From a virus (taxonomy: Duplodnaviria; Caudoviricetes), in IMG/VR virus record IMGVR_UViG_2639762835_000002: a DNA stretch of 64,000 nt. The stretch is one strand, 5' to 3'. Of the stretch, positions 5,390-63,610 are shown piece by piece (positions within the stretch are counted from its first letter, which is position 1; each line of letters begins with the position of its first letter). Both the position numbers and the translations under genes were made by a program. The notes under the pieces were generated by a model. The model saw nothing but the letters and a program-made list of their open reading frames with translations, was not told where the DNA came from and made no database searches.

Positions 5390-5495
5390 GGTGCTCCTGT
5401 GTTTGTTTATCCGCTGGTTGGGCGGTGGTCGGGCCGTCTGGTATGCCGCTGGCATTCGTCAGGCCCGAGCCGCCCAGGGTGCGGGGTTCGCTCGG

Positions 5496-7241: not shown

Positions 7242-7252
7242 GGATGGGGTCC

Positions 7253-17516: not shown

Positions 17517-17855
17517 TCACCACCACTTATCTTCGTCCACTTTTTGCCAGATGGCGCGTTTGAACTCTGTATCGCTCAGATTACCTTGGCGAATCGGGGG
17601 GTCATCAATCCAGCGAGTCAAAGCACTGAACTCATCATGGGCAACCGCTGGGGAGTGATGGGTATCCGGTGAGGTCTGGTGATGTCGTCTTTGGAGTAGG
17701 CCAGACGCATAGCTACGCTCACCAGGTGTGAGCATGTTAAGCCAGTCATCAATTTCATGTTGAGGCCATTGCCGCTCGAGGATGATCCTGCAGCGGTTCT
17801 CGATGGCTTCGCTGCCGTGCACCTGGGGCGTGTAGGTAGTTTGCTTATTGCTCAT
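17517..17855 (-). CDS. Conserved hypothetical protein downstream of gpA
   Basis: Similar to 53403-53621 in prophage 2. Confidence 0.65.
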   Translation of the reverse strand: MSNKQTTYTPQVHGSEAIENRCRIILERQWPQHEIDDWLNMLTPGERSYASGLLQRRHHQTSPDTHHSPAVAHDEFSALTRWIDDPPIRQGNLSDTEFKRAIWQKVDEDKWW

Positions 17856-20238: not shown

Positions 20239-21815
20239 GCAGCCACCTCCTGCGCATCTGCGCACATCTCTGGCAGGTTGGCGCGCACCAAGGCGGCAGC
20301 CAGTGGCGGGCACACGGCATTACCACAGCGGGCAACCTGCGCGGTCTTGGTGAACTTCTTGCCGTTGGCATCGTGGGCGATCACGTAGTCAGCAGGGAAA
20401 CCCTGAGCCGCAAACAACTCATGGGGCTCCAGCATCCGCATCCCGATATCGACGATCTGGTAATCCTCGCCGCGCACGGTCACCAGGCCGAACCGGTGTT
20501 TGGTGGTGACAGTTTGCAGTGGCTCATCAGCGGCATGGCCGATATTGGTGCCGTAATACTTGAGCAGGAAGGCCCGCACCTCGCCGATATGCAGCCCGCC
20601 AGCGGTGACGGTGGGCATGGGCTCGGTCACCGGCTGGCCGTGCTGGCAGGTGCCGCGTAGCTTAATCAGGTGGCTGGTGACCAGCGCGTTGTGGTCAACG
20701 GTGGTCACGGTCGGCAGCGGCTGGGTCAGCTCTGCCCCCACGACGCCGGTGTAGTGCTTGGCCAGGAACGCGGTCACCAGCTGGCTCTTATCGGCCTTGG
20801 CCATCACCGTCCCCAGCGGGTCTTCCACCGATTGACCAACCGAGTTACCGAACTGCCGGGCGATTACTGGCGCTACTAGAGCGAAGTGACCACCCTTCAC
20901 CTCTGCGCAGATGGTACGCAGAAGCTCATCAGCTGGCATATTGCGCTGATGGCTGGCGTTGGCATGTTCAGTGATGAAGGGGGCAAGTGCTGAGTTCCGG
21001 CCAATTGGCACGATGAATGGTTCGGCAGCATTGATGACGAACCTCTCCAGCCCCTTGGCAATCCGGCGCAATGTGTTCTCAGCCAGTGGCCGCTTGCGCT
21101 CGAATATCGAGGGGCACGGGATCGACCAGTCGATGATGTCAGCAGCAGTAGGCCACGGCAGCAGCTTGCCCGCCTTCACTTCGATACTGCCGGGGGCGCA
21201 GTGGGTCGGCTTGGGCCACACGATGGCGGCGCCATCCCGGCGGGCGATCAGAAACAGGCGCTTGCGGATGGTCGGGGTTCCGTAGTCACAGGCGCGCAGC
21301 TCGCGCCATTCCACCTTGTAACCTTGGCGGCGCAGGGCATTGATGAAGCTGTTGAAGGTGCGGCCCTTCTTGGCCGGGTCTGGGCGGGAGTTGCCATCAT
21401 TGTCGATCAGCAAAGGCCCCCAGGTCTGAAACTCCTCGACGTTCTCCAGCATGATCACCCGGGGGCGAATCTGGGCAGCCCAGCGCAGGGCAACCCATGC
21501 CAAGCCCCGGATCTTCTTGCTGACCGGGGTTGAACCCTTGGCCTTGGAGAAGTGCTTGCAGTCAGGCGACAGCCAGACCAGCCCGACAGGGCGACCAGCT
21601 ACCACGTCACGCGGCACGATGTCCCACACCGATTCGCAATAGTGCTCAGTGCTGGGGTGGTTGACGGTGTGCATGGCGATCGCATCCGGGTCGTGGTTGA
21701 TGGCGATTTCAGGGCTACGGCCCAGCGCCATTTCGATCCCGGTAGAGGCCCCGCCGCCGCCGGCAAAGTTGTCGACCACGATCTCGTTGAAGAGGTTGAA
21801 GTTATGCTCTTTCAT
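20235..21815 (-). CDS. Phage DNA cytosine-5 methyltransferase
   Basis: DNFAGGGG, SPDCKHFS, MLENVEEF, RKRLF, CGNAV. Confidence 0.93.
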   Translation of the reverse strand: MKEHNFNLFNEIVVDNFAGGGGASTGIEMALGRSPEIAINHDPDAIAMHTVNHPSTEHYCESVWDIVPRDVVAGRPVGLVWLSPDCKHFSKAKGSTPVSKKIRGLAWVALRWAAQIRPRVIMLENVEEFQTWGPLLIDNDGNSRPDPAKKGRTFNSFINALRRQGYKVEWRELRACDYGTPTIRKRLFLIARRDGAAIVWPKPTHCAPGSIEVKAGKLLPWPTAADIIDWSIPCPSIFERKRPLAENTLRRIAKGLERFVINAAEPFIVPIGRNSALAPFITEHANASHQRNMPADELLRTICAEVKGGHFALVAPVIARQFGNSVGQSVEDPLGTVMAKADKSQLVTAFLAKHYTGVVGAELTQPLPTVTTVDHNALVTSHLIKLRGTCQHGQPVTEPMPTVTAGGLHIGEVRAFLLKYYGTNIGHAADEPLQTVTTKHRFGLVTVRGEDYQIVDIGMRMLEPHELFAAQGFPADYVIAHDANGKKFTKTAQVARCGNAVCPPLAAALVRANLPEMCADAQEVAA

Positions 21816-26949: not shown

Positions 26950-28011
26950 ATGACCGTCCGAAAACTTGATGACGGCAAGCCGTTCCCCTGGCTTGCCGAT
27001 GTCCGCCCTGGTGGTCGCAGTGGCCCACGCCCACGCAAGCGGTTTGCCACCAAGGGGGAGGCAACAGCATGGGAGCAGTGGCAGCTTGAGCAGTTCGCTG
27101 AGAAGCCATGGCTTGGTGAAGAAGATGAGCCGCTGGTAGAGCCGCCAGTTGACGCTCGCCGACTGGCCGACCTAGTTGAGCGCTGGTTTGGCCTGCATGG
27201 CCAAAGCCTGCGTGATGGAGAGCAGCGCCGATCCAAGCTGCTGCTGATTTGCGAAAGCCTGGGTAACCCACTGGCCAGCGACTTCACCGGTAATGACTTT
27301 GCCAAGTACCGAGAGGCGCGCCTGTCTGGGGCTGTGAGTGATCGGCGGGCTGCAACGCAGGATGGCAAGGGGGTGAGCGCCTCGACGGTTAACCGTGATC
27401 ACGCCTATTTACGGGCAGTGTTTAATGAGCTCAAACGGTTGGGTGAGTGGACGGCAGAAAATCCACTGGCCGGGATGCGGCTTTACCGGGTCACTGAGTC
27501 CGAACTGGCGTTTCTGTATCCTGATGAAATCAAGGCGCTGCTCGATGCCTGCGACTCATCTAGCCACGCTGACCTGGGTACCGTGGTGCGGCTCTGCTTG
27601 GCCACTGGGGCGCGGTGGGGTGAGATCCAAGACCTGACACAATCGCAAGTGGCACAGAACCGGTTGACGTTTACCCACACCAAGGGTGGCAAACGTCGAA
27701 CAGTGCCTATCAACCAGGAGCTGATCGACATAATCCCCAAGCGGCGAGGCAAGCTGTTCAGTGAGTGTTACCACCACTTTGAATCGGCGATAAATCGGGC
27801 GGGAATCCAACTACCGGCAGGGCAGAGCACCCACGTTCTGCGGCACACCTTTGCCAGTCATTTTATGATGAACGGTGGTAACATTTTGGTGTTGCAGAAG
27901 ATACTCGGGCACTCGACTATTACCATGACGATGCGCTATTCGCACTTTGCCCCAGACCACCTTGAGGATGCTTTACGGCTCAATCCACTGACGGTCAACA
28001 AACTTCGCTGA
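26950..28011 (+). CDS. int: Tyrosine integrase of prophage 1 (186/HP1 type)
   Basis: LATGARWGE, HVLRHTFASH, LGHS, MRY. Confidence 0.97.
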   Translation: MTVRKLDDGKPFPWLADVRPGGRSGPRPRKRFATKGEATAWEQWQLEQFAEKPWLGEEDEPLVEPPVDARRLADLVERWFGLHGQSLRDGEQRRSKLLLICESLGNPLASDFTGNDFAKYREARLSGAVSDRRAATQDGKGVSASTVNRDHAYLRAVFNELKRLGEWTAENPLAGMRLYRVTESELAFLYPDEIKALLDACDSSSHADLGTVVRLCLATGARWGEIQDLTQSQVAQNRLTFTHTKGGKRRTVPINQELIDIIPKRRGKLFSECYHHFESAINRAGIQLPAGQSTHVLRHTFASHFMMNGGNILVLQKILGHSTITMTMRYSHFAPDHLEDALRLNPLTVNKLR

Positions 28012-47551: not shown

Positions 47552-49019
47552 GTGGCGTATCCCGAAGAGATCCGCAAGGCAGCAAAGGGACTCTACCTTA
47601 AGCGATGGACCCCCCAGGAGATCAAGGACGAACTGGGTCTGAACTCCTGCCGCATTGTCTACTACTGGGCCGAAAAGCTCGGCTGGCGGGAGCTGTTGAC
47701 CGATGAGGCGGTGGAGGATGCCATTGCCCGCCGGGTCAATGTGCTGCTGGATCGCGAGAAGAAAACCCCGGGCGAGCAGGATGAGCTGGACCGACTCATT
47801 GGCCACCATGCCAGCCTGAAAGAGAAAGCCCTCAAGTGGGCTGAACGCCAGCAGGCGCTCACCACCCGCCGCGAGAGTAGCGATGAACCCGCTGCCGAGC
47901 GGTCGCGCCGTGGCCGAGGCGGCCAAGATGGCGGCAGCAGTAAGGGGAGGGGCGGCAAGAAAGGTAAGAACCAGATCGGCCACCTGAGCGCCGACGATTT
48001 CAGCGAGTGGCTGGATCCCCAACTTCGAGCGGCTCTCCGATGTCTCCAGTGCCATGGCCACCCAAAGCCATTGGCGTAAGACCTACTTCTCGACCCCATC
48101 GAGCAAGGTGCACGAAGCGTACCGGTTCTGGACCGGGGATCGCTGGAAGGGTACTCGCCCAAGTCGGCAGGCTATCGACTTCCCTGGTGAAGACGACCTG
48201 CGCGACGGGGGCCGCATCTGTCCCGATCGGCAGTGGCGTTACGTCATCACCGTCGAGGATGCCATACGCCTGGGTTGCAACCTCATCGACATCGAGGAGC
48301 TCAAAGACGAGTACCCAGAGGAGGTGTTCGATCGCCTCTACCTGTGCCGCTTTATCGACGATGCCCTGTCGGTGTTCAAGTTCCAGGATATGGAGCGGGC
48401 GGGGGTGGATCCGACCCGGTGGGAAGACTACAAGCCCGGGCGGCCCGACCCGTTTGGCCGGCGAGAGGTGTGGCTGGGGTATGACCCAAGTCGCACCCGC
48501 GACAACGCCACCCTGGTGGTGGTCGCCCCGCCCACTGTCGCCGGCGAGCGGTTCCGGGTGCTGGAAAAGCACTACTGGCGCGGGCTTAACTTCCAGTACC
48601 AGGCGCAGGAGATCGAACGCATCGCCAAGAAGTTCCGGGTCACTTATCTGGGGGTTGATGTGTCCGGCATTGGCTCCGGGGTCTATGACCTGCTCAAGCC
48701 TGTGTTCAAAGGGGTGTGCCACCCCATCAACTACAGCATCGAGAGCAAGTCGCGGCTGGTACTCAAGATGATCGACGTGGTGGAGGCAAACCGCATCGAG
48801 TGGGACAGCTCGGACCGGGATATCCCGCTGGCGTTCCTGGCCATCAAACGCAGCACCACCGGTGGCGGCCAGATGACGTTCCGCGCCGCCCGCGACAACG
48901 TGACCGGCCACGCCGACGTGTTCTTTGCTATCGCCCACGCCGTGGCCAATGAGCCGCTCGATACCAACCGCAAACGTAAATCCAGCTGGGTCACCAGTCA
49001 GGAGAGAAAGGCAGCATGA
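47552..49019 (+). pseudogene. Terminase large subunit with an internal deletion and frameshift at ~48011-48014
   Basis: The N-terminal HTH part is fused out of frame to WIPNFERL...TYFSTPSS; the Walker A and B motifs present in prophage 1 gpP are missing. Confidence 0.9.
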
Positions 49020-50032
49020 CCAAACGACAGCAACGACCGGCCAAGACTGCCACCCCTTCTACCCGTTCTTCTGTGGTGTTCAGCATGCCGGAAGCGGTCG
49101 ACCCCACCGCCTGGATGACCGACTACACCGGGGTGTTCTACAACCCCTACGGCGAGTATTACCAGCCGCCCATCGAGCGCAAGGGGTTGGCCAAGGTGGC
49201 GCGGGCCAATGCCCACCACGGGGCCATCTTGATGGCGCGACGCAATATGGTGGCGGGGCGCTTCACCAACCAGCGCGCCACCATCACGGCGTTCGTGCAC
49301 AACTACCTGCAGTTCGGGGATGCGGGCATGCTCAAGCTGCGCAACGGCTTTGGCCAGGTGGTGGGGCTGCACCCGTTATCGAGCGTCTACCTGCGCCGGC
49401 GTGAGGATGGCTGCTTTGTGTACCTGCAGCAGCAGGGCAAGCCGAACCTGATTTACCGGCCGGAGGAGGTGATCTGGCTGGCGCAGTACGACCCAGAGCA
49501 GCAGGTCTATGGCATGCCCGATTACCTGGGCGGCCTGCAGTCGGCCCTGCTCAACCAGGACGCCACCCTGTTTCGGCGCAAATACTTCCTCAACGGCGCC
49601 CACATGGGGTTCATCTTCTACGCCACCGACCCGAATATGGACGATGACACTGAAAAAGAGATGAAGGAGATGATCGCGAGCAGCAAGGGGGTGGGGAACT
49701 TTCGCTCCATGTTCGTCAACATTCCGGACGGCAAGCCTGATGGCATCAAGCTGATCCCGGTGGGGGACATTGCGACCAAGGACGAGTTTGCCGCCATCAA
49801 GGGGATCACCGCCCAGGACGTGCTGACTAGCCACCGATTCCCGGCGGCGCTGGCCGGCATCATTCCGACCAATGGTGGGGGCGGGCTTGGAGATCCCGAG
49901 AAGTACGATGCGACCTATGCCAGAAACGAGGTGCTGCCACTGTGTGAGCTTATCCAGGATGCCATCAACAGCGCGGGACTCCCTCGCTCCCTCTGGGTCG
50001 ATTTTAGGGAGAATATCGGTGCAACTGTATAA
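49016..50032 (+). CDS. Portal protein
   Basis: QQVYGMPDY, DATLFRRKYFLNGAHMGFI, HRFP. Confidence 0.95.
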   Translation: MTKRQQRPAKTATPSTRSSVVFSMPEAVDPTAWMTDYTGVFYNPYGEYYQPPIERKGLAKVARANAHHGAILMARRNMVAGRFTNQRATITAFVHNYLQFGDAGMLKLRNGFGQVVGLHPLSSVYLRRREDGCFVYLQQQGKPNLIYRPEEVIWLAQYDPEQQVYGMPDYLGGLQSALLNQDATLFRRKYFLNGAHMGFIFYATDPNMDDDTEKEMKEMIASSKGVGNFRSMFVNIPDGKPDGIKLIPVGDIATKDEFAAIKGITAQDVLTSHRFPAALAGIIPTNGGGGLGDPEKYDATYARNEVLPLCELIQDAINSAGLPRSLWVDFRENIGATV

Positions 50033-50040
50033 ACAAACAG
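50025..50040. promoter_or_regulatory. LexA box upstream of ogr
   Basis: CTGTATAAACAAACAG fits CTGT-N8-ACAG. Confidence 0.8.
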
Positions 50041-50090
50041 TGTTCGCTGTGGCAAGATAGGCTGTTGATTTGGATAGAAAAGGGGGCGTA

Positions 50091-50342
50091 ATGCGGGTTT
50101 ATTGCAAAGTGTGTGGCCAGCGGGGCCGCATTACCAAGACCAACCGACTGAGCGATGATGTCTCGGATCTCTACTGTCAGTGCACCGATGCGGAGTGTGG
50201 CCACAGCTGGGTGGCCACCTTGTCGTTCGCCCACACCCTGAGCCCCTCGGCCAAGACTACCAACCAGCTGGTGCTGAGCTTGATGGGGTCGCTGACGCCA
50301 GAGGGGCGGCAGATGGTACTGAAAGGACTGGGGGCGCAATAG
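50091..50342 (+). CDS. ogr: Ogr/Delta zinc-finger activator
   Basis: CKVC...LYCQCTDAECGHSW...HTLSPSA. Confidence 0.92.
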   Translation: MRVYCKVCGQRGRITKTNRLSDDVSDLYCQCTDAECGHSWVATLSFAHTLSPSAKTTNQLVLSLMGSLTPEGRQMVLKGLGAQ

Positions 50343-50868
50343 CGCCCTCCGATTTTTTCTTGTTCTGGCACGATGTGGTCGTCATCAGGGCGCCCCTCGG
50401 CGCTGGTTGCTACTGTCGATCCTCTCTTCGTTCGCTCCACAAGGCTGACCTGCATCAAAAAGTGAAACAGAAATCAGCCTGATAGATAACTTTTTGCTGA
50501 CTGCAATAGTCTGCGTTTGATACCCTACTGATCTGTCATATTCACGATGCTAATGGCAGCCTAGATGATTGATGGTTACCTTTTCTTCAAGCTGGTTATA
50601 AAGCAGCGTGCAGGGAACTAAAACCCTCAGAGGTAGTTATCTTGTTTACCAGGAGACGGGATACAAGGTGATGGATACCACAGAATCTAATTGCCGGATT
50701 ATGACGAATGGTTGCACATGTTTACTGCGTGTGCCAAGCCAGTCAGCGCAGGGTTTTGAAATGTCAGTGATACTTTTAAATCGTGTTTTATATATACGAA
50801 ATAGAGTTTCGATACTATGTGGAAACTTTCCGTAAAAAACTTTTGTGCAATTTTTAAAGAGGTGGCCT

Positions 50869-51474
50869 TTGGCAAAGGAAAATAATAATTTGGCGGCTAG
50901 CTCTGCTAGAGAGAGCAAACTATTGCAAATTCGGACTGATGCTTTATCGGCTGAGTATATATATAAACATGAATTGAATAAGATATCTGTTGTTACAACC
51001 GTTATTACGGCACTAACGATTCTAGTACCTATTATAATAACTCTTGCTTTGGTTTGGGCTAAAGGTACAGGTTATGAGGAACTTCTGAATGGTGTATCTT
51101 ACATATCATCTGGTGCTTTGCTATGTCTTTCTATCTGTAGCTTAATATTCAAACTTGAGCAACGAAAAGAAGCATACTTAATTGGTAGACGTACAAACAT
51201 ATCTATTGGGAATGAAGCTCAGGAACTAATGTCTAACAGAGAGTTAGACGCGACATGGTTTTATAAGTTTGTTGCGGAGCAGGATGCGAGAGATCAAGAG
51301 AATATATCTAATATCTCTAGCTCAGTAACACAGGATGCTTACCGATATACACTCAAGAAACTTCATCCTAGTGATAGCAATGTTGTATGTCCGGTATGCT
51401 CTGCATCACCATATATTTTTTTCAAAGGTAGTTGTCAATTGTGTGGTAATACACCAGTAAATAAGGGGAAGTAA
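50869..51474 (+). CDS. Two-TM (SLATT-like) protein with a C-terminal CxxC-x11-CxxC (mobilome CxxC family-like)
   Basis: TTG start after AGAGGTGG; two TM helices; CPVC-SASPYIFFKGS-CQLC. Confidence 0.8.
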   Translation: MAKENNNLAASSARESKLLQIRTDALSAEYIYKHELNKISVVTTVITALTILVPIIITLALVWAKGTGYEELLNGVSYISSGALLCLSICSLIFKLEQRKEAYLIGRRTNISIGNEAQELMSNRELDATWFYKFVAEQDARDQENISNISSSVTQDAYRYTLKKLHPSDSNVVCPVCSASPYIFFKGSCQLCGNTPVNKGK

Positions 51475-51690
51475 ATGTCTAATAAAGAAATATTTGATAA
51501 TTGGTTTAGTGGGCTTTCAAAATCTGAGCAAGATGAAATATTAACCCATATTTTTTCTACGAAGCTCACTATTACTACTGAAGGCTTTTTTTCAGGGCCA
51601 TCAGGTAAGGCTTTAGAGAAGGGACTTTTTACTGGACCTTCTGGTTTTAGTGGTCGTCAAGTTTGTGGTGGTTGTGGTCGCCCAATATAA
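51475..51690 (+). CDS. Small hypothetical protein with a C-terminal CxxC
   Basis: Abuts the upstream stop, has an RBS; GFFSGPSG / GLFTGPSG repeat and CGGC. Confidence 0.75.
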   Translation: MSNKEIFDNWFSGLSKSEQDEILTHIFSTKLTITTEGFFSGPSGKALEKGLFTGPSGFSGRQVCGGCGRPI

Positions 51691-51693
51691 ATT

Positions 51694-51823
51694 GCATAAC
51701 AAATGTCTCAAGAGGGACTGTCAACGCGTTGTGTTTCCAGTCCCATTGAGCCGCGGTGGTTATGGCTGTTGAGTTTGAGTTTAGTGTTATGCATGTTGCC
51801 AGTCCCTTAGGTGGACGTTAACT
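51694..51823 (+). other. attC site of the Vibrio cholerae repeat (VCR) type
   Basis: GCATAAC...CTCAAGAGGGACTGTCAACGCG...TTTCCAGTCCCATTGAGCCGCGGTGGTTA...GTTTGAGTTTAGTG...CCCTTAGG...GTTAACT closely follows the VCR consensus as recalled. Confidence 0.92.
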
Positions 51824-51851
51824 CTCTTTACGTAAATATAATGAGTATATA

Positions 51852-53024
51852 ATGGTAATTACTCCAAGAGTCATATGCAAAACATGTGATACGAAACATC
51901 TTTTAAAGGTAACGATAGGACGCGAAGATAGTCAATATCATTCTTTTCCGTGTACTGAATGTGAAGAGGAAATGGAATTCGGACTTGAAAATATGTTTTC
52001 GGTTACTGATTTAAAATATAGGTATGGAAAAAACTGTAAAGAGGGTGATTTTGATTACTTTGATGCGATACAGGTTCATTTAAATCCTGATTTTGGCGTG
52101 GGACACAAAGTTGTTGAGGCTGGTGATATTTTTACGGCAACGTTGTCTAATTGCCTTGAAATGCAGCGAATGCAAGCGGAAATGGACCAGGAAATAAGAG
52201 CTGAAATTATTGAGCATCGAGTTAATTATGATAACTATAATAGTGAAAAAATGCGATTTCACTTGAAGGTTTGGTCGCTTTTAAGAAAGGGTAAAGTTGA
52301 ACTTGCGGATAAGTACATATCAAAAAACATATGTGAGTTTCAGGGGAACGCTGGAAAAGGACAGGAATATCATACTAGTGAATTCCTAAATCATATTATC
52401 GGTTCATATGGTTTGGAAATTTATGAAAGCTTAAAATCTGAGAAAGAAAAAGCAGCTTCCCTCAAAGAGCTTGTTAATTTTAGTGAAACTCAAAATGTAG
52501 ATGTATATGATATATTTGAAGAGTTTATAGAGTTGTTTAGTGAGTTTTCTCAGGTGTTTACTTACTTAAATCGCGGGATTGAAATATCAGGCAGTGTTAA
52601 AGTATCTTCGACAGACTTTAATCGTACAAAAAAACACTATAGCTCAGCATATGAAGTGTTAGCAAAGCTTCTCTATATTCCCGCAGGTATTAATAACTCT
52701 ATAGAGAGGGGGGACCCTCATAAGTTTGAACGTCTTGACTCGCTGGGTAAATATGTAAACACTGGAAATGGTGATAAATTGCGCTGTTTAAGCAACAACG
52801 TTGAATTAAATAAGCTTTCTGAGTGTTACGATAATCATTTAAGAAATGCATCATTTCATAACAATATGAATTACAGCCCTAAAAAAAATAAAATCACGTA
52901 TAAACAGAATAACGGCATAGATGTAAAAATGAACTACAAAGAATATTTAATTATGTGTGTTAAAGTGACTGAGGCTATTGCCGCTTTATCTTTGTTTAGT
53001 TTAGTTGACCTAAACGAGAGTTAA
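51852..53024 (+). CDS. Cassette protein: N-terminal Zn ribbon and C-terminal HEPN-like RxxxxH motif
   Basis: CKTC...CTEC; LRNASFH; the stop codon lies inside the inverse core site. Confidence 0.8.
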   Translation: MVITPRVICKTCDTKHLLKVTIGREDSQYHSFPCTECEEEMEFGLENMFSVTDLKYRYGKNCKEGDFDYFDAIQVHLNPDFGVGHKVVEAGDIFTATLSNCLEMQRMQAEMDQEIRAEIIEHRVNYDNYNSEKMRFHLKVWSLLRKGKVELADKYISKNICEFQGNAGKGQEYHTSEFLNHIIGSYGLEIYESLKSEKEKAASLKELVNFSETQNVDVYDIFEEFIELFSEFSQVFTYLNRGIEISGSVKVSSTDFNRTKKHYSSAYEVLAKLLYIPAGINNSIERGDPHKFERLDSLGKYVNTGNGDKLRCLSNNVELNKLSECYDNHLRNASFHNNMNYSPKKNKITYKQNNGIDVKMNYKEYLIMCVKVTEAIAALSLFSLVDLNES

Positions 53025-53138
53025 CAAACGCTATAAGGCAGAATCGCAACGCATGGTATTTTTGTCATGCGTTGATTTTGGTGATTAAAGTGGTCTGTGG
53101 AAATATTGCGTTGCTCACCATTTGAGCGGGTGTGAGGC
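53019..53138 (+). other. attC site of a second Vibrio type, degenerate
   Basis: AGTTAACAAACG...TCGCAACGCATGG...CATGCGTTG...TATTGCGTTGCTCACCA...GTGAGGC (core with GTT mutated to GTG). Confidence 0.8.
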
Positions 53139-53402
53139 CGTAAATTTCTAGCCCTTGGTACCAGAATAAAAGACTCATCGTCTGGAATTATGAACTGTGC
53201 CGCCATGCTACCACGGTGGCACAGTTCACTAATGATTTGCACGTCAAGGTCCGTTGTCCGGCTGCCCCATGATCGGTGCGCTCGGTTGAGCTGTCAGGTG
53301 CGGCTTGGACGATGACCACGGGGAGCGGGCCATCAAAAAAGTTTGCTGTCTACCATTAGAGGAAAGAAGCGGCACAGTCGGGTGGTTTACCTTTATCTGA
53401 AA

Positions 53403-53621
53403 CTAGTTTGTAACCTCGGTGGCGACGACAGACAGAGCCAGCGATTCTGAATGAGAATAGCGGTGACGCAGGATAATGCAGGCCACGGCCTGCTGTTTGC
53501 CCTTGAGCATCCCCACCCATTGACTGGTCTCGTTGGCTGGCCAGCATTGCTGGAGAATGTAGGTCACCCGATTAACCAGGCGGCGGTATTCTTCGCGGCT
53601 TACGGTCTGCATGCTGTTCAT
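53403..53621 (-). CDS. Conserved hypothetical protein downstream of gpA
   Basis: ILQQCWP...W..ML; similar to 17517-17855. Confidence 0.6.
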   Translation of the reverse strand: MNSMQTVSREEYRRLVNRVTYILQQCWPANETSQWVGMLKGKQQAVACIILRHRYSHSESLALSVVATEVTN

Positions 53622-55885
53622 ATCCACTCCTCGTTGTAGTCGCCCAGTTCTTGCTGCCAATCCTGGGTGTTAAGCTTCTCCAGTTCTGCCCACATGTGTG
53701 ACTGGTGTGGCTCCGGCAGCATCTCAATCCAACGGTGCGCCCCGGCGTGTCCTTGCACCTGGTAAACCTTGCCGCACAATTCGACAAGCATCGGCCAGTC
53801 CGGATCGCCTGCCGGTACCGCGTATTCATCTGGTTGGCCCTGTTCGGCTGGCTGTAGTCCCTCCAGTTGCAAGTCCGGCTCGCTTGGGAGCGATCTGCAC
53901 GACTGCAGCTGTCCGTTCTCCAGCCAGAGGGTGAAACCATCCGCCCTTACGCTGGCACCTGACCGTAACCGGTCGATGGAGAAGGGCGATAACCCCCATT
54001 GTTCCCTCATGATCTGGTCTGCGAAGGCATCAGGATCTGGCCGCGTACAGTTATTGTCAGAGCTCCAAGGAGCCGGGCTGTCGCCCGTCTTAACCCCAAC
54101 CCTCCAAGCCGAACCCTCGGCGGCCTTGGTGGCCTCAAAGGTACCGGCAGGCACCACTTCCCACCCAGTCAGACGAGTACGCACACCCAGTCGGGCGGTA
54201 TGTAGGCCCATCAGGCGTTTGATGTCTTCGCCGTAAGCGTTGGCCTGTTCTTCAATGAGGTGGGCCAACTTGATGGGGTGTTCGGCCCGGGTCGCCAGGG
54301 CGCCGCCCATGGCCTGCAGGTAACAGCGGAAGATGCCGTTATCCGCGGCAAAGCGGGCGGCCTCAAAGCGTGGGTCTTGCAACACAGGTTTAGGTGGGCC
54401 CACCAGATCACCATGCTTCTTGGCGTTGCTGATGCGGCGCAGCTCGCGCCACACCCCGACAGGGGCGCCGCCGATCTGTTGGAAGGTGCGGATCCCCCAC
54501 CAACTGGCCCAAGCACATGCATGCTGGGCCCCTTGATCAGCAGGAGTGTCTGACTCCTGATCACCATCTACATGCTCACCGTCGATGTTCTTGGCGATAT
54601 AGGCGGCGATGTAGCCGGTGGCGTCCCCTTTGGCCGGGTCTATCTCTTTCCAGTCAAAGCGGGGTTTGATGTTGGTGAAGGGCGGGCGCCCCTGGATCTC
54701 GCGCACCAGCTCCTGATGATCATCGGTGAGGGCATAGCGTTGCAGGGTGCTGATCACCCGCCATTTGTTGGCAGGGCGCATAAAGAGCAGCATGTGCCAG
54801 TGCGGGGTACCATCGTGATGTGGTTCGCACACCCGAAAGCCGTAGACGGGGGCATCGACCCGCTTGAGGGCGGCCCGAGTCAGGCTCCATAGCTTGGCCA
54901 GATAAGCGCAGGTTTCCCGCGGCGTTGCCCCTTCATAGCGCTTGTTCTCTACGGTCTTGCCGTCGTGCTTCTGTGTCCAGGCATGAAAGCGGGAAGGGGC
55001 CGTCCAGGTGACGAAGACCCCCACATGCCCTTGCTCTTCGGCGTAATCCTCAAAGCCGCGCATCCGCACCATCATCTCGTTGCGGCGGTTGACCGGGTTG
55101 GCGTTGCTGGCCTCCCAGCAATCCTTCATCGAGATCACCAGGTCATGCTGCTCGTTCATCACCTCAGACTCGGCCAACCAGCGCATCATGGCCCGCTTGC
55201 GCTCGCGCACCACCTTCATGGTGGCGTTCGACACATAAGCCGACACCCCCTTGCGCACCTTGCCGAGTACGATGTTGATGTGCTCCTGCAGTCGGTCCCA
55301 GGTGCGGTTGATGCGCTTTTCCCACCACTTGGCAGAGAGCAGGCGCACCATCACGCTCAGGATCCAGTTATCACGTATCTCCTCGGTTTTGAATTCGGGC
55401 AACTCCCCTATAAAGCCCCACTGGTCGGCAGGTTGGTGAATGACCTCCCATGCCAGCAGCAGATCCGGCTCATCGCCGGCTTTGATGCCCTGCTCGATGT
55501 TGTGCCAGATGGCGGCCGTCTGGTTGGCGAACTGGTGCGCCACTCGCTTACGGCTCTCTTCATCGCGCAGGGCCTGAGGGTCCACTGGCAGGGCCTGGAT
55601 AAGGCTGCGCACCAGCTTGGTCCGCTCACGAAGCCAGATGTTGCCATTGCGGGCATGGCGGGTGCTGCCATCTTTGCGGCGTCGCACGTATTGCTTGAAC
55701 AGGGTCAGGCTGAGCTGGGGGGAGAGGCCATCGAGCATTTGCACGGCCCACGCCAGATCAGATTGACCGGGTGCGCCAACGAAAGCGGCGTCAAGATTGA
55801 CGCCGGGCAGAGCATTGGAAAGGGTATCGATACGCTGCCGCAGTGTCCTTTTCGACAGCGGCAACCGGGTGGCTGTTCGACTCAT
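53618..55885 (-). CDS. A: Replication endonuclease gpA
   Basis: TWTAPSRFH, RVCEPHHDGTPHWH, GYIAAYIAKNIDG. Confidence 0.96.
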   Translation of the reverse strand: MSRTATRLPLSKRTLRQRIDTLSNALPGVNLDAAFVGAPGQSDLAWAVQMLDGLSPQLSLTLFKQYVRRRKDGSTRHARNGNIWLRERTKLVRSLIQALPVDPQALRDEESRKRVAHQFANQTAAIWHNIEQGIKAGDEPDLLLAWEVIHQPADQWGFIGELPEFKTEEIRDNWILSVMVRLLSAKWWEKRINRTWDRLQEHINIVLGKVRKGVSAYVSNATMKVVRERKRAMMRWLAESEVMNEQHDLVISMKDCWEASNANPVNRRNEMMVRMRGFEDYAEEQGHVGVFVTWTAPSRFHAWTQKHDGKTVENKRYEGATPRETCAYLAKLWSLTRAALKRVDAPVYGFRVCEPHHDGTPHWHMLLFMRPANKWRVISTLQRYALTDDHQELVREIQGRPPFTNIKPRFDWKEIDPAKGDATGYIAAYIAKNIDGEHVDGDQESDTPADQGAQHACAWASWWGIRTFQQIGGAPVGVWRELRRISNAKKHGDLVGPPKPVLQDPRFEAARFAADNGIFRCYLQAMGGALATRAEHPIKLAHLIEEQANAYGEDIKRLMGLHTARLGVRTRLTGWEVVPAGTFEATKAAEGSAWRVGVKTGDSPAPWSSDNNCTRPDPDAFADQIMREQWGLSPFSIDRLRSGASVRADGFTLWLENGQLQSCRSLPSEPDLQLEGLQPAEQGQPDEYAVPAGDPDWPMLVELCGKVYQVQGHAGAHRWIEMLPEPHQSHMWAELEKLNTQDWQQELGDYNEEWI

Positions 55886-56139
55886 TGGATGGCGGTACCA
55901 GATAGCAACGTAATGCGGGACTGGCAGCCCTGGATGCGCTGCTGCGCATGGGCTCTCATGCGGCGGGCTGCCGCGCACTGGCGCAGTAACAGCGTGATAC
56001 TGGCTCGGGGGCGAGCAGGCAGTCGGCGCGCATTGGCCAGCTCCTTCTGATAAAGACGCAGCCGCGCTGCGTCTTCCCGATAGGTCTCTTGCCAGCGGTG
56101 CATCAGGCTGGCCAGTTCCTGCTGCAGGTGATGGGTCAC
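55882..56139 (-). CDS. Hypothetical early protein
   Basis: Translationally coupled ORF. Confidence 0.6.
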   Translation of the reverse strand: MTHHLQQELASLMHRWQETYREDAARLRLYQKELANARRLPARPRASITLLLRQCAAARRMRAHAQQRIQGCQSRITLLSGTAIQ

Positions 56140-58580: not shown

Positions 58581-58682
58581 GTCACCTAAGTGTCGGTGAT
58601 GGCTAAAGGTAACTTATGGGTCGAATAAGGGTCAAGAGGTTTCGTTGCTTTAGTTACCTTGCTGGGTGGTAACTTAGGTTTA
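58581..58682. promoter_or_regulatory. Putative cI/cro operator array
   Basis: Four imperfect GTAAC-N4-GTTAC palindromes at 58581, 58609, 58644 and 58669. Confidence 0.6.
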
Positions 58683-59380
58683 TGGAAACTATCAATGACC
58701 GCATATCTGCACGCAGGCGTGCGCAGAAAATGAGCCAAGATGAGCTTGCGAGGCGTATCGGGATTACTCGGGTATCGATCAGCAAGTGGGAATCTGGACT
58801 TAACCAGCCTAAGGGCCGCTATCTCAATGACTTGGCGGCTGCGCTGGGGGTAACTGTTGACTGGCTACTGACTGGCGATGGCAACTCATCAGAGCCACCT
58901 GCGACAAAGTCGATACCTGGTTACCACAACGTCGAGCCGGCTGTGATCCCGCAAGGGTCTCGGGTGCCGGTGCTGAGCTATGTGCAGGCCGGCCACTGGC
59001 ACGAGATGTGTGATCAGGCAACGGCCTTCGATGGCAATGTCGAATATGTGACGGCGGGGGTGGAAGTAGGCCCTTGTGGCTTTGGCCTCTGGCTGCGAGG
59101 CGACTCTATGTTGCCGCAGTTTAAGGAAGGGGACCTCATCATCGTTGATCCCGACGAAGCGCCCCAACCAGGGGACTACGTGGTGGCCAGTAACGGCAGC
59201 GATGAGGCCACCTTCAAGAAGTACCGGCCCCGTGGCATCGATGAGAACGGGCACGAGGTGTTTGAACTTGTCCCCCTCAATGATGACTTCCCCACCATGC
59301 ACTCCGACCGGCAGCACATCCAGATCATCGGCGTGATGGTAGAACACAGATCATTTAGAAAAAGACAAACAGGGCGCTAA
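58682..59380 (+). CDS. cI: Lambdoid CI repressor, HTH + S24 autopeptidase
   Basis: SQDELARRIG...ISKWESG, VQAG, GDSM, ATFKKY. Confidence 0.95.
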   Translation: METINDRISARRRAQKMSQDELARRIGITRVSISKWESGLNQPKGRYLNDLAAALGVTVDWLLTGDGNSSEPPATKSIPGYHNVEPAVIPQGSRVPVLSYVQAGHWHEMCDQATAFDGNVEYVTAGVEVGPCGFGLWLRGDSMLPQFKEGDLIIVDPDEAPQPGDYVVASNGSDEATFKKYRPRGIDENGHEVFELVPLNDDFPTMHSDRQHIQIIGVMVEHRSFRKRQTGR

Positions 59381-59407: not shown

Positions 59408-61369
59408 ATGGCCGATTTTCAATTAAATATAGACTTTAATGTTTTGAACCACCTTGGTATGGGATTATATTCCAACACTCCTGCCGTTCTTACAGAAATA
59501 ATATCAAACGCATGGGATGCTGATGCTGAGCTTGTATCAATTGATCTAGATAAAGGATCAGGAGAGGTTACTATTATTGACGATGGCAATGGAATGACTG
59601 AGTCTGAAATAGTCAATAAATTTCTAAAGGTTGGTTATGCTAGGCGGGACAGTGCATGTGGTAAAAGTGAGGTTAAAAGTAGGCAAGTAATGGGGCGAAA
59701 GGGAATCGGTAAATTAGCCATGTTCTCCCTAGCGAATAAGATACAAGTACATACAAAAAAAGACGGAGTTTGTACTGCCTTTGAAATTGATGTTGGCAAA
59801 CTGAAAGGTCATATAAAGGCAGGTACTAAATATTCTGCAACGAGGATAACCCCTTTTTTTGATGAAGAAAAAGGAACTAAAATTATATTATCTGATTTGA
59901 CAAAATCTATTAATAGAACTGAAAGTTATTTGAGAAAAAGACTTGCAAGACGATTTAGCATAATTGGAGCTGGTGATCTATTTGAAGTCGTACTCAATGG
60001 TAATCCCATCACCATGGAAGATAGAGATTACCTTGGAAATATTCAGTTTTTATGGGAGTTTGGCAACTCGAACGGAAAGGTAATGGAAGCATGTAAAAAC
60101 AAATCAAAAAGTGATACCTTAGATAATCTTGTTGTGTATGAAGAAAATAAATACTATGTGAGTGGATATATAGGTACTGTCGAACTTCCTGCGCAGCTGA
60201 AAACTGATTCTGAGACATCAAATAATACAATAACAATAATGTCGAATGGCCGTGTTTTTGAGGAGAATATTCTATCTGCATTTGATAGTGCAAGAATGTT
60301 TACCAACTATCTTGTAGGGGAAGTGGAGATGAATTTCCTCGATGATAATGAATTACCCGACATGGCTACCTCATCAAGACAGCAGCTTCAGCAAAATGAT
60401 CCACGCTATAAAGTCGTGACAGAGTTTATGAAAGCATCTTTAAACAAGATAGATAAAAAATGGGATGAGTGGAGAAGGGAAATTGGTTCAAAAGAGGTGG
60501 AAAAAGAAACGCCAATTTTAACGAGCTGGTTATCAGAATTAAAGTCTGGTGAAGAGAAGGTGGCTAGGCGACTTATTGGAAAACTAAATACTTTTCGGTT
60601 TGGTGGTTCTGAAGAAGAACAAAAAGAAACCAAGAAGGAAGTGTTAAAAAACACTCTCGTTGCTTTTGAAAAAGCTCGAATAAACAATAATTTGAGCAAG
60701 CTTGAAAATGTTGAAAGCATAGAGTCTAGTGTTTTCAGAGATATATTTGTTTCAATAGATGATATTGAGGCGAGTTTATTTTATGACATTACTTCACAAA
60801 GAATTAAAGTGATAGAACACTTCGCCAAAATTACAGAAGATAATGAGCTTGAGAAAGCCGTTCAGGAATACCTTTATAAACATCTATGGTTGCTAGATCC
60901 ATCTTGGGAGCGTGTTACTGGGTCCAGTATTATTGAGCAAACGTTGACGAATGAACTTAAGCAGATAGAGCCAGATGCAATAAAGGGTGCCAGAATTGAT
61001 ATAGCATACAAAACCATTTCAGGTAAACATATCATTATTGAAATGAAAAGACCGGGTGTGAAAGTTGATATACCTGCACTTGTAGAACAGGGGGATAAAT
61101 ATGTCAGGGCAACAGAACAATGGTATAAAAACAGCCCTAAGAGTTGCCCTTCATATGGAGTGGTCCCACCAATAGATGTAATTTTCTTATTAGGTAAAAA
61201 TGAATTTCCTAATAGAAGCGAAAAATATATTCAAGGCCAACTAGAATCTATTGGAGCAAAGATATTTACATATACTGATTTGATCACTCAGTCAAAACAA
61301 GCATACAGTGAGTATCTACATGGTCGGGAAGACATGTCTAAATTCCGGAAATTGATCGAAGAGATTTAG
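59408..61369 (+). CDS. GHKL-ATPase / PD-(D/E)xK restriction endonuclease (HgiDII/BbrUII-like)
   Basis: EIISNAWDADA, DDGNGM, GRKGIGKLA; C-terminal RIDI...IIIEMKRP. Confidence 0.85.
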   Translation: MADFQLNIDFNVLNHLGMGLYSNTPAVLTEIISNAWDADAELVSIDLDKGSGEVTIIDDGNGMTESEIVNKFLKVGYARRDSACGKSEVKSRQVMGRKGIGKLAMFSLANKIQVHTKKDGVCTAFEIDVGKLKGHIKAGTKYSATRITPFFDEEKGTKIILSDLTKSINRTESYLRKRLARRFSIIGAGDLFEVVLNGNPITMEDRDYLGNIQFLWEFGNSNGKVMEACKNKSKSDTLDNLVVYEENKYYVSGYIGTVELPAQLKTDSETSNNTITIMSNGRVFEENILSAFDSARMFTNYLVGEVEMNFLDDNELPDMATSSRQQLQQNDPRYKVVTEFMKASLNKIDKKWDEWRREIGSKEVEKETPILTSWLSELKSGEEKVARRLIGKLNTFRFGGSEEEQKETKKEVLKNTLVAFEKARINNNLSKLENVESIESSVFRDIFVSIDDIEASLFYDITSQRIKVIEHFAKITEDNELEKAVQEYLYKHLWLLDPSWERVTGSSIIEQTLTNELKQIEPDAIKGARIDIAYKTISGKHIIIEMKRPGVKVDIPALVEQGDKYVRATEQWYKNSPKSCPSYGVVPPIDVIFLLGKNEFPNRSEKYIQGQLESIGAKIFTYTDLITQSKQAYSEYLHGREDMSKFRKLIEEI

Positions 61370-62390
61370 CATGATCCAGGATTGTCATACCAACAATCTC
61401 TCCTAGCCTTACTGGCACTGCATTGCCAATCATTTTGGCAAGCGCTGCCATATCGTGTTGGGCTTCAGACGGCAGGAATTTGTAAGCCTTAGGGAACGAT
61501 TGAAGTAATGCCGCTTCTCTAAGGCTGATTCCTCTATCCTGTTCTGGATGCCCGAAACGACCGTTTCCAAAGCCAGTACATTGAGTTGTCATTGTAGGGC
61601 TGACTTTATCCCACGCCATTCTTCCATATACAGAAATGTATGTTTTTCCTGAATCTTTTCGATGGCAATCAGCTCGAAGGTGCTCTGGCCAATCTAACCA
61701 TGTACCACCTGGCTTTGAATGCTGAATTCTTTGGAGGTTAATGTCGGATAAACCTGGAGCCTTATGTAAAGGGTCTGAGCTATGCTGTTCTCCGGCTAAG
61801 AGTGTAGGCAATGAGGATATCACATCTCGTACTGTAATATAATTATCAGGAGTATGAGTTGCTTCTATGAGTTTTATATCTGAGGAACGGGCGGCAACGA
61901 GGACAAGACGCTTTCGTGACTGTGCCATTCCATAGTCAGGACAATAAACTACCTTATAATCAATGAAATAGTTATTATTTTTTAGAGTCTTAACAAAATC
62001 ATGAAAGACACTCTTGGTTAACATACCAGGAACGTTTTCCATAGTTACGTAATCGGGCCTTACCTGTTCAATTAAGGCTCCAAAACTGCCAAGTAAACCA
62101 GAACGTTCATCTTCCTGATTGTTTCTGTTTCTGGAGTATGTGGAGAATGGTTGGCATGGGGCGCAACCAGCTAACAGAGTCACCTCTGCTCCCTCAAAGT
62201 GCGTAGCAAGTTCATCTGCAGTTAGATCAGTAACGCTCTGATTAATGAACCTAGCTTTATTGTTGTGTTCATAGGCATACCTGCAGGTTTCTACGATGTC
62301 GTATCCGGCAACAACATCTATTCCGGCTCTAACGAGTCCGTGTGTTAGGCCACCTGCACCACAGAACAAATCAACAGCACGAATTGTCAA
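61338..62390 (-). CDS. DNA cytosine-5 methyltransferase, M.HgiDII-like (start approximate)
   Basis: DLFCGAGG, GCAPCQPFS, MENVP, SVYGRMAWD, GNGRFGHPEQDR, IGNAVP. Confidence 0.93.
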   Translation of the reverse strand: MTIRAVDLFCGAGGLTHGLVRAGIDVVAGYDIVETCRYAYEHNNKARFINQSVTDLTADELATHFEGAEVTLLAGCAPCQPFSTYSRNRNNQEDERSGLLGSFGALIEQVRPDYVTMENVPGMLTKSVFHDFVKTLKNNNYFIDYKVVYCPDYGMAQSRKRLVLVAARSSDIKLIEATHTPDNYITVRDVISSLPTLLAGEQHSSDPLHKAPGLSDINLQRIQHSKPGGTWLDWPEHLRADCHRKDSGKTYISVYGRMAWDKVSPTMTTQCTGFGNGRFGHPEQDRGISLREAALLQSFPKAYKFLPSEAQHDMAALAKMIGNAVPVRLGEIVGMTILDHAKSLRSISGI

Positions 62391-62520
62391 GGTCAAAACT
62401 CCAAAACTCATCTTCAAACAGCGTGCGAGTATACCAGCCTTTTTCGCTCTCATCGAGGAGCTTGTGTCACAGGCGAAGTTTATCTTGCCGAAACCAAACA
62501 CTCCCAATCTCTACTGATGG

Positions 62521-62554: not shown

Positions 62555-63610
62555 ATGGCAGTAAGAAAACAGACATCCGGCAAGTGGCTTGCCGAAATCT
62601 ACCCGGAAGGGCGGCCTAGCAAGGCCAATCCCAATGCACCGCGTGTGCGCAAGCAGTTTGCCACCAAGGGCGAGGCGCTGGCGTTCGAGCGCTTCGTGCT
62701 GGACCCGGACAAGGGCAAGCCCTGGCTGGAAGGGCAGGGGGAGCCAACCGACGGCCGGCGCCTCTCCGATCTGGTTGAACTCTGGTTTGGCCGCCATGGT
62801 CAGAGCCTGCGCGATGGTGAGGCCCGCAAATCCAAGCTGCTGACAGTCTGCCACTCCTTGGGAGATCCGCTGGCGGTCAACTTCTCTGCCCGTGACTTTG
62901 CCGCCTATCGTGAAGCCCGCCTATCTGGCGACATTACCGATCGGCGTGCCATCAACCAGGAGAAGCAGGGTGTCACTCCCAACACGGTGAACCGCGAACA
63001 TGCCTACCTGCGGGCGGTATTCAACGAGCTGAAAAGGCTAGGGGAGTGGCAGGGTGAAAACCCCCTTGATGGCCTGCGGGCTTATAAGGTGGCCGAGGCT
63101 GAGCTGGCCTTTCTCTATCCCGATGAACTCAAGCGCCTGCTGACCGCCTGCGCCGAGAGCCCAAGCCCCGATCTACTGATGGTGGTGAAACTCTGCCTTG
63201 CCACTGGCGCCCGCTGGTCTGAGGTGGAAGAGCTGACCCAGTCCCAGGTATCTCCCAACCGCGTGACCTTCACCCGCACCAAGAGCAAGAAGAGCCGTAG
63301 CGTGCCCATCAGCCCCGCGCTCTATGCCCAGTTGCCGAGAAAACGTGGCCGCCTGTTCGGTGACTGCTATCGGGCCTTTGAGATGGTGGTCGAACGGGCA
63401 GGGCTGGAGCTGCCTGCCGGGCAGAATACCCACGTCCTGCGCCACACCTTCGCCAGCCACTTTATGATGAACGGCGGCAACATCCTGGTGCTGCAAAAGA
63501 TCCTCGGCCACTCCACCATCGCCATGACCATGCGCTATGCACATTTCGCCCCCGATCATCTGGAAGATGCGGTACGATTGAACCCTCTTTCTGTTTGTGG
63601 TCTAAATTGA
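62555..63610 (+). CDS. int: Tyrosine integrase of prophage 2
   Basis: LATGARWSE, HVLRHTFASH, LGHS, MRY; closely similar to 26950-28011. Confidence 0.97.
   Translation: MAVRKQTSGKWLAEIYPEGRPSKANPNAPRVRKQFATKGEALAFERFVLDPDKGKPWLEGQGEPTDGRRLSDLVELWFGRHGQSLRDGEARKSKLLTVCHSLGDPLAVNFSARDFAAYREARLSGDITDRRAINQEKQGVTPNTVNREHAYLRAVFNELKRLGEWQGENPLDGLRAYKVAEAELAFLYPDELKRLLTACAESPSPDLLMVVKLCLATGARWSEVEELTQSQVSPNRVTFTRTKSKKSRSVPISPALYAQLPRKRGRLFGDCYRAFEMVVERAGLELPAGQNTHVLRHTFASHFMMNGGNILVLQKILGHSTIAMTMRYAHFAPDHLEDAVRLNPLSVCGLN

Follow-up and report, generated by a model that had tools for sequence, protein, structure and literature searches.

The question raised by the locus described here is how integron gene cassettes come to lie in the accessory slot of a temperate phage, and by what means such a slot is stocked. 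The locus belongs to IMG/VR virus record IMGVR_UViG_2639762835_000002, a stretch of 64,000 nucleotides (here called the window) which holds two P2-like prophages in tandem. In the right-hand prophage, between the ogr late-activator gene and the gpA replication gene, lies a short array of two gene cassettes, each closed by an attC recombination site. We read it, with a probability of roughly 0.8, as an integron array having neither integrase nor attI (a CALIN, the term for clustered attC sites that have no integron integrase) in the ogr-gpA slot of a phiO18P-like Aeromonas prophage, a reading that extends to what we infer of its assembly, of its exchange between phages as a block and of a cargo of conflict-type genes.

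Two attC sites and two cassettes

Between ogr and gpA the G+C content drops from about 0.60 to 0.33-0.40, and the stretch is occupied by three plus-strand open reading frames (ORFs), each gene set being followed by a repeat of 120-130 nt. When this cargo was compared with plasmids by BLAST, 82 records were matched (Vibrio 45, Aeromonas 8, others), and every match fell on one or other of the repeats. The first of these, attC1, is 87-89% identical to plasmid attC sites adjoining qnrVC, dfrA14 and aac(6') cassettes, and we take the plasmid sites of such qnrVC-type cassettes to be VCR-like (VCR, Vibrio cholerae repeat). The second, attC2, shares 74-81% identity with two plasmid sites, one following dfrA31 in V. 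fluvialis pBD146 and the other following a GNAT cassette on a V. gangliei plasmid, on which an annotated integron integrase is followed by qnrVC7, fos and GNAT cassettes; further homologous sites stand at cassette ends in V. fluvialis pBD146 and in a Shewanella xiamenensis plasmid. The suggestion of a first-pass annotation of this DNA that two different attC families are present is borne out. Where we attribute a feature to Vibrio, this refers to the named plasmids together with the source names of proteins.

An alignment (A4) was made of 35 attC sites that represent both families and come from plasmids and from other genomes, the window contributing none. From it RNAalifold derived the textbook helix (R box, spacer, L box) with its unpaired bases, comprising 19 consensus pairs, of which 5 show compensatory changes. 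The covariance model built from this alignment, R1, is tuned to the two families, and others may escape it; its positive control is the recovery of the published arrays of Shewanella phage M16-3. With filters off, R1 reports on both strands of the 64 kb only attC1 (E 6e-23) and attC2 (E 5e-19). The former runs from the inverse core GCATAAC (51694-51700) to the core G|TTAACT (51817-51823, the bar marking the crossover), the latter from AGTTAAC (53019-53025) to G|TGAGGC (53132-53138); against the consensus RYYYAAC/GTTRRRY, GCATAAC, GTTAACT and AGTTAAC each agree at 6 of 7 positions. At the level of their sequence both repeats are confirmed as genuine attC sites, and attC1 retains the limits that the first-pass annotation had drawn for it.

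The start of a cassette is expected to be complementary to its own inverse core if that cassette was once a circle. Cassette 2 opens at 51818 with TTAACTCTC, to which GAGAGTTAA at 53016-53024 is exactly complementary; 10 of 11 positions match, the first 9 exactly, and a score of at least 10/11 is reached by 4 of 5000 shuffles. Cassette 1 begins at 50843 with TTGTGCAATTT, which agrees at 10 of 11 positions with the complement of 51689-51699, a stretch ending in its own inverse core; no other site from ogr to the ORF has 9 or more matches, and the score is reached in 56 of 5000 shuffles. The stop codon of the last ORF lies 3 nt before attC1 in the one cassette and within the inverse core of attC2 in the other, while the crossover between the cassettes is G|TT, the canonical inner junction. 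Both attC sites have the same orientation and the ORFs are promoter-less, a promoter scan having given no plus-strand site upstream of cassette 1 and counts not above those of shuffles. The cassette architecture earlier proposed for the ogr-gpA cargo is upheld by the R1 matches and the start complementarity, the array consisting of two true cassettes, and this anatomy, as far as nucleotides can speak for it, is shown to be of a kind produced only by integron-integrase recombination.

Table 1. Coordinates of the cassette array and of the surrounding prophage features in the window
Feature	Position	Strand	Remarks
Portal gene of the right-hand prophage	49016..50032	+	Pfam Phage_portal 2e-12; 85% identical to Aeromonas phages A051, phiO18P; conserved backbone
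ogr/delta-type late activator	50070..50342	+	Pfam Ogr_Delta 1e-13
Terminator-like hairpin at ogr end	50330-50359		terminator scan
Left flank of hotspot allele	50350..50842	.	non-coding by all tests
Cassette 1, 975 bp, GC 0.38	50843..51817	+	start complementarity; end at G of attC1 core
ORF1, 201 aa from TTG 50869	50869..51474	+	ribosome-binding site AAGAGG 50857-50862; longest frame from GTG 50845
ORF2, 71 aa	51475..51690	+	ATG is the codon right after the ORF1 stop (51472-51474); ends CGGCG
attC1, 130 nt, VCR-like family	51694..51823	+	R1 97.1 bits, 19/19 model pairs standard
Cassette 2, 1315 bp, GC 0.35	51818..53132	+	start complementary to 53016-53024
ORF3, 390 aa	51852..53024	+	N-terminal CxxC..CxxC beta domain, helical middle, probable HEPN end
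attC2, 120 nt, second Vibrionaceae-type family, slightly decayed	53019..53138	+	R1 81.9 bits
Right flank of hotspot allele	53133..53370	.	unique; contains inverted repeat 53187-53233; backbone homology back from 53370-53397
Small backbone ORF, 85 aa, downstream of gpA	53403..53660	-	no Pfam match
gpA replication initiator	53618..55978	-	Pfam Phage_GPA 2e-87
Repressor of cassette-bearing prophage	58682-59380		
Integrase of cassette-bearing prophage	62555-63610		

As to the genes themselves, ORF1 matches the NCBIfam family TIGR04402 ('mobilome CxxCx(11)CxxC') with 150.4 bits against a cut-off of 70, and its translation contains the motif CPVC-x11-CQLC and two transmembrane (2TM) helices; its best relatives come from Grimontia (86%), V. 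vulnificus (78%) and V. parahaemolyticus (77%), and one source label among the relatives is that of a SLATT-type 2TM domain. ORF2 has a weak PHROG match only (phrog_25760 at 4e-4), the PHROGs found for ORFs of the window being families of unknown function only. ORF3 belongs to a small family of 27 clusters, its best relatives coming from V. parahaemolyticus (85%) and V. alginolyticus (73%), with further relatives in Grimontia, Photobacterium, Psychromonas and Pseudomonas. Near its C-terminal end the string RNASFH (residues 331-336) is invariant in 13 of 13 aligned relatives. The AlphaFold2 model of ORF3 has a predicted local distance difference test (pLDDT) score of 79, and VIA-align with residues 205-390 places HEPN toxins and Csm6 at the top with Z of 6.5-4.5, which is weak for helical domains; the ESM Atlas offers 'zinc ribbon' and SEC-C-like clusters only. 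HEPN domains are marked by an Rx4-6H motif in a four-helix domain, and the invariant string and the modelled fold suggest that the C-terminal end is probably of this kind. A homologue of ORF3 forms a true cassette in Pseudoalteromonas aurantia (L086), between R1 sites at 5867-5973 and 7166-7267, and the earlier expectation that homologues should occur as cassettes has held in this instance.

The ogr-gpA slot and the attI of Aeromonas

Accessory hotspots of P2 hold anti-phage genes such as tin and old. The structural module of the prophage carrying the array is 83-85% identical to those of Aeromonas phages A051, phiO18P and P05B (Bielevirus, Peduoviridae), and a search with the ogr region matched 25 of 46 genomes of the genus, the window's own counted, with homology ending at 50347-50349. 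Twelve sister prophages, those on long contigs, were taken without regard to attC (the 'unbiased' sample), and their ogr-gpA intervals, 1.6-4.9 kb in length, are unrelated to each other and to the window; 11 of the 12 are AT-rich (GC 0.39-0.49; one 0.56) against a backbone of about 60% GC. Homology to the backbone is back at 53370-53539 in the six of these 12 intervals that share that stretch. From the limits of homology in the relatives, the hotspot allele extends from 50350 to about 53370, the array at 50843-53132 lying within it and being accompanied by other DNA, about 490 nt on the left and about 240 nt on the right. The slot thus occupies a fixed position between conserved genes and holds unrelated cargo in relatives, as a hotspot does, and the view that the array sits in a variable accessory interval of a P2-like prophage, where sister alleles hold recognisable defence genes, agrees with these data.

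The flanks of the array within the allele differ in their distribution. On the left, a non-coding element downstream of ogr (50440-50662) recurs in other Aeromonas genomes with 70-78% identity (G001:C86 78%, G024:C54 70%, and G021:C38 within this range), shorter matches occurring in G043, G033, G029, G028, G016 and G008; only query positions 1-223 are covered, and Rfam gives nothing at E <= 1 for 50000-53700, this element included. The adjoining 50663-50842 was found nowhere in the genus or in the sample of the order except in copies of the same allele. The right flank (53133-53370) matched the window's own genome only, both in the genus search, over query positions 1-220, and in the sample of the order, and it contains a near-perfect inverted repeat, GAACTGTGCC..GGCACAGTTC, seen as an opposite-strand self-match.

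Public sequencing runs hold further copies of the allele. In a run of another study, labelled with another organism, one contig spans 49900-53700 unbroken, showing 159 differences along with 9 gaps. Pieces of both cassettes and both flanks occur in three more runs, and other run contigs diverge exactly at 50347 and 53467. The unbroken contig together with the divergence at these two points indicates that the allele is inherited and exchanged as one unit together with its cassettes. In copies of the allele that are about 96% identical, small insertions plus a substitution are clustered near the left cassette boundary (50833, 50850, 50851). No RNA runs holding the allele were listed. The array would then move within the 3-kb hotspot allele (50350 to about 53400), which related phages would exchange through homologous recombination in their conserved flanks.

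The same hotspot carries R1 sites in three other Aeromonas prophages (L055, L089 and L090), the last two having been picked for their BLAST matches to the attC sites and being also among the loci of the ogr search. Upstream of the L089 array, a stretch of 160-360 nt is a repeat that occurs in 39 of the 46 genus genomes; R1 attC sites occur in 30 of the 46, and most copies of this leader sit just upstream of such sites. Twenty-three leader copies align up to ...ATCTAATCACTG|TTA and diverge beyond it (...CACTG|TTA), the junction being G|TT in 19 of 26; in 4 cases an attC situated 0.6-0.9 kb downstream starts with the complement of the cargo's first 11 nt, at most one position being mismatched. 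In L095 the leader overlaps the start of a diverging intI pseudogene, 87% identical to the intact IntI of genome G019, and intI stumps of 25-86 aa adjoin the leader in L089, L090, L100, L107 and L112. Alignment, junctions, the overlap in L095 and the stumps together identify the repeat as an Aeromonas attI with a truncated intI. It adjoins gpA in 6 of the 12 unbiased sisters (L044, L046, L048, L050, L054 and L055), as it does in L089, L090 and two IMG/VR contigs; the comparison of related ogr-gpA intervals that the first-pass annotation had in mind reveals both variable cargo and integron sites. The presence of attI with cassettes in the same slot of sisters implies that integron recombination recurrently stocks the hotspot. 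The isolated phages phiO18P, A051 and P05B have neither attC nor attI, and in nine sister loci R1 with filters off yielded one weak extra attC only (L050 6172-6250, 19.6 bits). Most Aeromonas leader copies are not beside a gpA gene, and intI scores above cut-off in 5 of the 46 genus genomes, in one of them with two internal stops.

Among the cargo ORFs of the sisters 7 of 42 have a PADLOC match, among them PD-T7-5 (6e-129), TIR (3e-48 and 1e-48), HNH (2e-23) and DEDDh (1e-32); PD-T7-5, a TIR effector and an HNH nuclease belong to the cargo that follows the attI. In L050 (4211-6313; G024:C62) the order is attI, a cassette of 229 aa, a PD-T7-5 cassette with a weak short attC, and then ogr, apparently a known defence gene residing as an integron cassette within the phage hotspot.

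Some further observations concern the genus and the remainder of the window. Many short Aeromonas arrays stand behind a conserved attI with intI reduced to a stump. A second small array is present outside the window in the same genome, in another AT-rich island (G000:C1:3814403-3817453, equivalent to L113 5404-8454), with R1 attC sites at 5404-5535, 7574-7703 and 8325-8454 of L113 and an Aeromonas-type attI at 6985-7117, between the first two. The tandem left prophage (window 1-28011; capsid 6189-7241, terminase 8224-9993, portal 9990-11033, gpA 17845-20313, integrase 26950-28011) has in its portal-gpA slot an AT-rich ORF of 364 aa (11685-12779, no family), a Bro-N/P22_AR_C gene and a umuDC-like pair, as well as PD-T7-4 (14072-14740, 3e-89); the R1 and attI profile searches of the window found neither attC nor attI in this prophage. 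In the cassette-bearing prophage an AT-rich type II restriction-modification pair (59408-62507; in PADLOC, restriction endonuclease 2e-96 and C5 methylase 9e-91) lies between repressor and integrase, in what looks like a second cargo slot.

Counter-evidence and competing origins

Several observations weigh against a CALIN with conflict cargo; they concern the sites, the recombination apparatus and the genes, and rival accounts draw on them. As regards the sites, the core of attC2, GTGAGGC, has lost the GTT triplet which its relatives all have, and 3 of its 19 model pairs are non-standard, one of them within the R box. The minimum-free-energy fold of attC1 is another, non-canonical hairpin, and with the R box enforced it reaches -11.5 kcal/mol, a value attained by 8 of 200 shuffles (for attC2 the corresponding figures are -13.0 kcal/mol and 0 of 200). 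The non-canonical fold of attC1 would suit the idea that the repeats are dispersed Vibrio-type repeats, REP-like or terminators, with the cassette architecture a coincidence, and so would a terminator-like hairpin at 53047-53074 inside attC2. We nevertheless consider such a coincidence highly improbable, given that homologous sites stand at cassette ends in integrase-bearing integrons, that covariation backs the R/L-box helix, that R1 scores of 82-97 bits are matched by none elsewhere in the 64 kb, and that both cassettes show the junction complement.

Concerning the apparatus, the earlier statement that no intI is present extends to the whole genome, where none scores above cut-off (best TIGR02249 80 bits against a cut-off of 265), and tblastn of two IntI proteins against the window matched only the two phage integrases. 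A profile of the 23 Aeromonas attI leaders left the window without a match at E <= 10, and the flanks, searched by themselves with nhmmer --max, gave none either. The outer junctions are T|TT on the left and G|TG on the right, neither of them attI-like, and the target rebuilt from them, T|TG, falls outside the GWT consensus reported for attG. The sister arrays run towards ogr, opposite to the array of the window. In the run contigs, which cannot show rare forms, there is no joint that skips a cassette at its boundary. A resemblance of 50810-50842 to the attI core was noticed by eye and is not claimed, the attI profile being without a match there.

Two other origins have to be weighed on this evidence. 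Direct capture, in which a trans-acting integrase placed cassette 1 and afterwards cassette 2, or both as a pair, at an attG in a hotspot whose flanks were once contiguous, would explain why the ends of the array coincide exactly with cassette ends and why neither side has a remnant of attI or intI. Insertion outside att sites has been shown experimentally, according to the available part of a preprint (bioRxiv 10.1101/2022.09.11.507474), and an integrase acting in trans is plausible with intI above cut-off in 5 of the 46 Aeromonas genomes. The rebuilt target T|TG, on the other hand, misfits GWT, no relative with joined flanks was found (50663-50842 and 53133-53352, the two sides of an empty site, matched nothing beyond the window's own genome in the 46 genus genomes and the sample of the order), and the allele acts as one 3-kb block in other samples. 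We regard direct capture as unlikely, and the earlier proposal that an integrase captured the cassettes in situ finds no confirmation in these junctions, nor in an attI or an empty site.

Somewhat less likely still is the decay of a phage-borne integron, that is, of an attI-led array later inverted or rearranged, whose attI decayed until it could no longer be recognised, for instance through deletion of its hairpin. Such a history draws on the presence of attI in the same hotspot of 6 of 12 sisters and on the existence of degenerate attI junctions with a base other than G at -1 (T|TT in L106, for instance); by eye, and as inference only, 50810-50842 also has scattered positions in common with the attI core, as well as the short palindrome GGAAAcTTTCC. 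Against this, profile searches of the window and of its flanks come up without an attI whatever the threshold, the array runs counter to all attI-led phage arrays, and the gpA-proximal flank, where sisters have their attI, is also blank. We rank the import of a ready-made array with the allele above direct insertion at a non-classical site, and the latter above decay of an attI-led array. Assembly of the CALIN would have been the work of an integrase acting in trans, or would have taken place before the array reached the phage, and the absence of intI and of attI together with the GTG core makes it probable that the array is now largely frozen.

The immediate donor need not be a vibrio. The first-pass annotation had derived the cassettes from a Vibrio superintegron, and a Vibrio connection stands in so far as the nearest protein relatives are Vibrionaceae (77-86%), but the superintegron as source is not supported: the same attC families turn up in 30 of the 46 Aeromonas genomes, for the most part with an Aeromonas-type attI ahead of them, which leaves room for an Aeromonas array as immediate donor. 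Searches by DNA and by either protein brought to light no near-identical cassette in about 400 other genomes sampled from the order; the exception there is a split ORF3 homologue of 66-68% in G303, at neither locus of which R1 finds an attC. A further part of the earlier proposal, a route leading from cassette to phage to transfer RNA (tRNA) gene, is not supported by the window, in which ARAGORN finds no tRNA.

The doubts about the cargo are of a different kind. Pfam has no match for ORF1 or ORF2 and for ORF3 only a sub-threshold one (Big_8, 16.7 bits against 22.9, E 0.008); PADLOC matches none of the three; all fold matches of ORF3 have Z under 8, and Foldseek against the PDB returns nothing for the model at E <= 0.001. 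The homologue in P. aurantia is the only one of a cassette gene shown to be a cassette, and near the Pseudomonas homologue of ORF3 (L087) R1 with filters off finds no attC. The defence identity that had been claimed for the three genes is accordingly reduced to a role suggested by domain types and neighbourhood, from which we would place them among abortive-infection or toxin-type conflict genes: a 2TM zinc-ribbon protein that would act at the membrane, accompanied by a small partner, and another zinc-ribbon protein, whose end would be a HEPN-like RNase. The prophage would keep such a cargo to shield its host from other phages.

The genes might instead form an addiction or toxin-antitoxin module stabilising the prophage, or a moron of other role, and the missing PADLOC matches fit this, as does the fact that TIGR04402 is named by context only ('mobilome') and that HEPN and 2TM proteins are also known as toxins. 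Sister alleles of the slot, however, hold defence-type genes (PD-T7-5, TIR, HNH), PD-T7-4 lies in the equivalent slot of the neighbouring prophage and a type II restriction-modification pair in the cassette-bearing one, and a HEPN-only system of a V. cholerae integron cassette is reported as defence in the accessible text of bioRxiv 10.1101/2024.07.02.601686. A cargo other than anti-phage thus appears to us the less probable case, albeit one to be taken seriously.

Known systems and implications

Compared with known CALINs, the array is alike in its two attC sites of the same orientation, its promoter-less ORFs and a genome without intI, and arrays of two cassettes make up the most frequent size class of CALINs (1362 of 2961) in the portion of bioRxiv 10.1101/2022.09.11.507474 at hand. 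It is unlike them in lying, with sites called by R1, inside a prophage accessory hotspot and in having a last core decayed to GTG. The same source portion describes attG insertion and single attC sites lacking integron integrase (SALINs), with cassettes far from attI or intI in either orientation and the consensus G|WT; as far as it goes, this model accounts for attC-bearing cassettes remote from attI or intI, and the junctions of the window, rebuilt to T|TG, do not conform to the consensus it reports.

Phage genomes with integrons and 17 CALINs are described in the main text of PMC9892861, examples being the Shewanella prophage M16-3 (Peduoviridae) and the V. anguillarum phage Va_90-11-286_p16. 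As presented there, these resemble our case as P2-like or temperate phages carrying attC arrays, and the attC2 family is present in p16. M16-3 differs in having its complete integron beyond the repressor, at the far end of the record, and its CALIN among tail genes, neither of them in the slot between portal and replication genes. The word Aeromonas has 0 occurrences in that main text, and supplementary tables may list further phages.

With the P2 hotspots as we know them the slot shares its place between the replication gene and the portal side and its cargo, unrelated in each relative and in part known defence; it differs in that ogr adjoins the portal gene in these Aeromonas phages and that attI leads the cargo in half of the relatives. 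A class 4-like chromosomal integron that has an attI of its own, together with cassettes without known function, has been described in Aeromonas sp. 3925 (PMC10609294), which, in the part of the article available, is evidence that Aeromonas can own an integron other than class 1; as described there, it comes from one strain and has no phage link.

Defence systems encoded by cassettes of sedentary chromosomal integrons, including a HEPN-only one, and some homologues of these in prophages form the subject of bioRxiv 10.1101/2024.07.02.601686, and mobile-integron cassettes also carry defence systems (10.1101/2024.07.02.601719), both as given in the accessible portions. Defence cassettes of the chromosomal integrons, as reported there, resemble the cassettes of the window in being small single- or two-gene systems, and differ from them in that the reported prophage copies are treated as lying outside integrons, whereas the cassettes of the window keep their attC inside the prophage. 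Full-text searches, made on articles without their supplements, gave nothing further on integron cassettes or attI in the hotspots of P2-like or Aeromonas phages. Integron pieces in phages and cassettes as defence genes were thus known already, while the coupling of integron cassettes to the ogr-gpA slot, where half of the relatives have a dedicated attI, appears to be new.

The locus joins two lines of research, one treating phage hotspots as anti-phage depots and the other treating integron cassettes as a bank of small defence systems, and it offers one concrete way for phages to acquire candidate defence genes. It also draws attention to an unreported feature of Aeromonas genomes, namely many short arrays with a conserved attI from which the integrase gene has been cut away. 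If integron recombination stocks the hotspot, cassettes would gain a transducing vehicle that is independent of plasmids, and loading of the slot would be site-specific, where until now only illegitimate or homologous exchange has been assumed. The cassettes of the slot would then constitute a short list of candidate defence genes, those of the window being the 2TM CxxC protein with its partner, and the zinc-ribbon HEPN-like protein.

More tentatively, and at somewhat short of even odds, the ogr-gpA slot of Bielevirus-type Aeromonas phages may serve as an integron docking platform, with attI (ancestrally with intI) standing by gpA, where a host or plasmid expressing an integrase could load, unload and shuffle defence cassettes within a single cassette economy. 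Were this the case, the phage would carry its loaded cassettes to new hosts, and the array of the window together with the attI-led mini-arrays found in 39 of the 46 genomes would share an economy that spans phages, chromosomes and the cassette pool of the Vibrionaceae.

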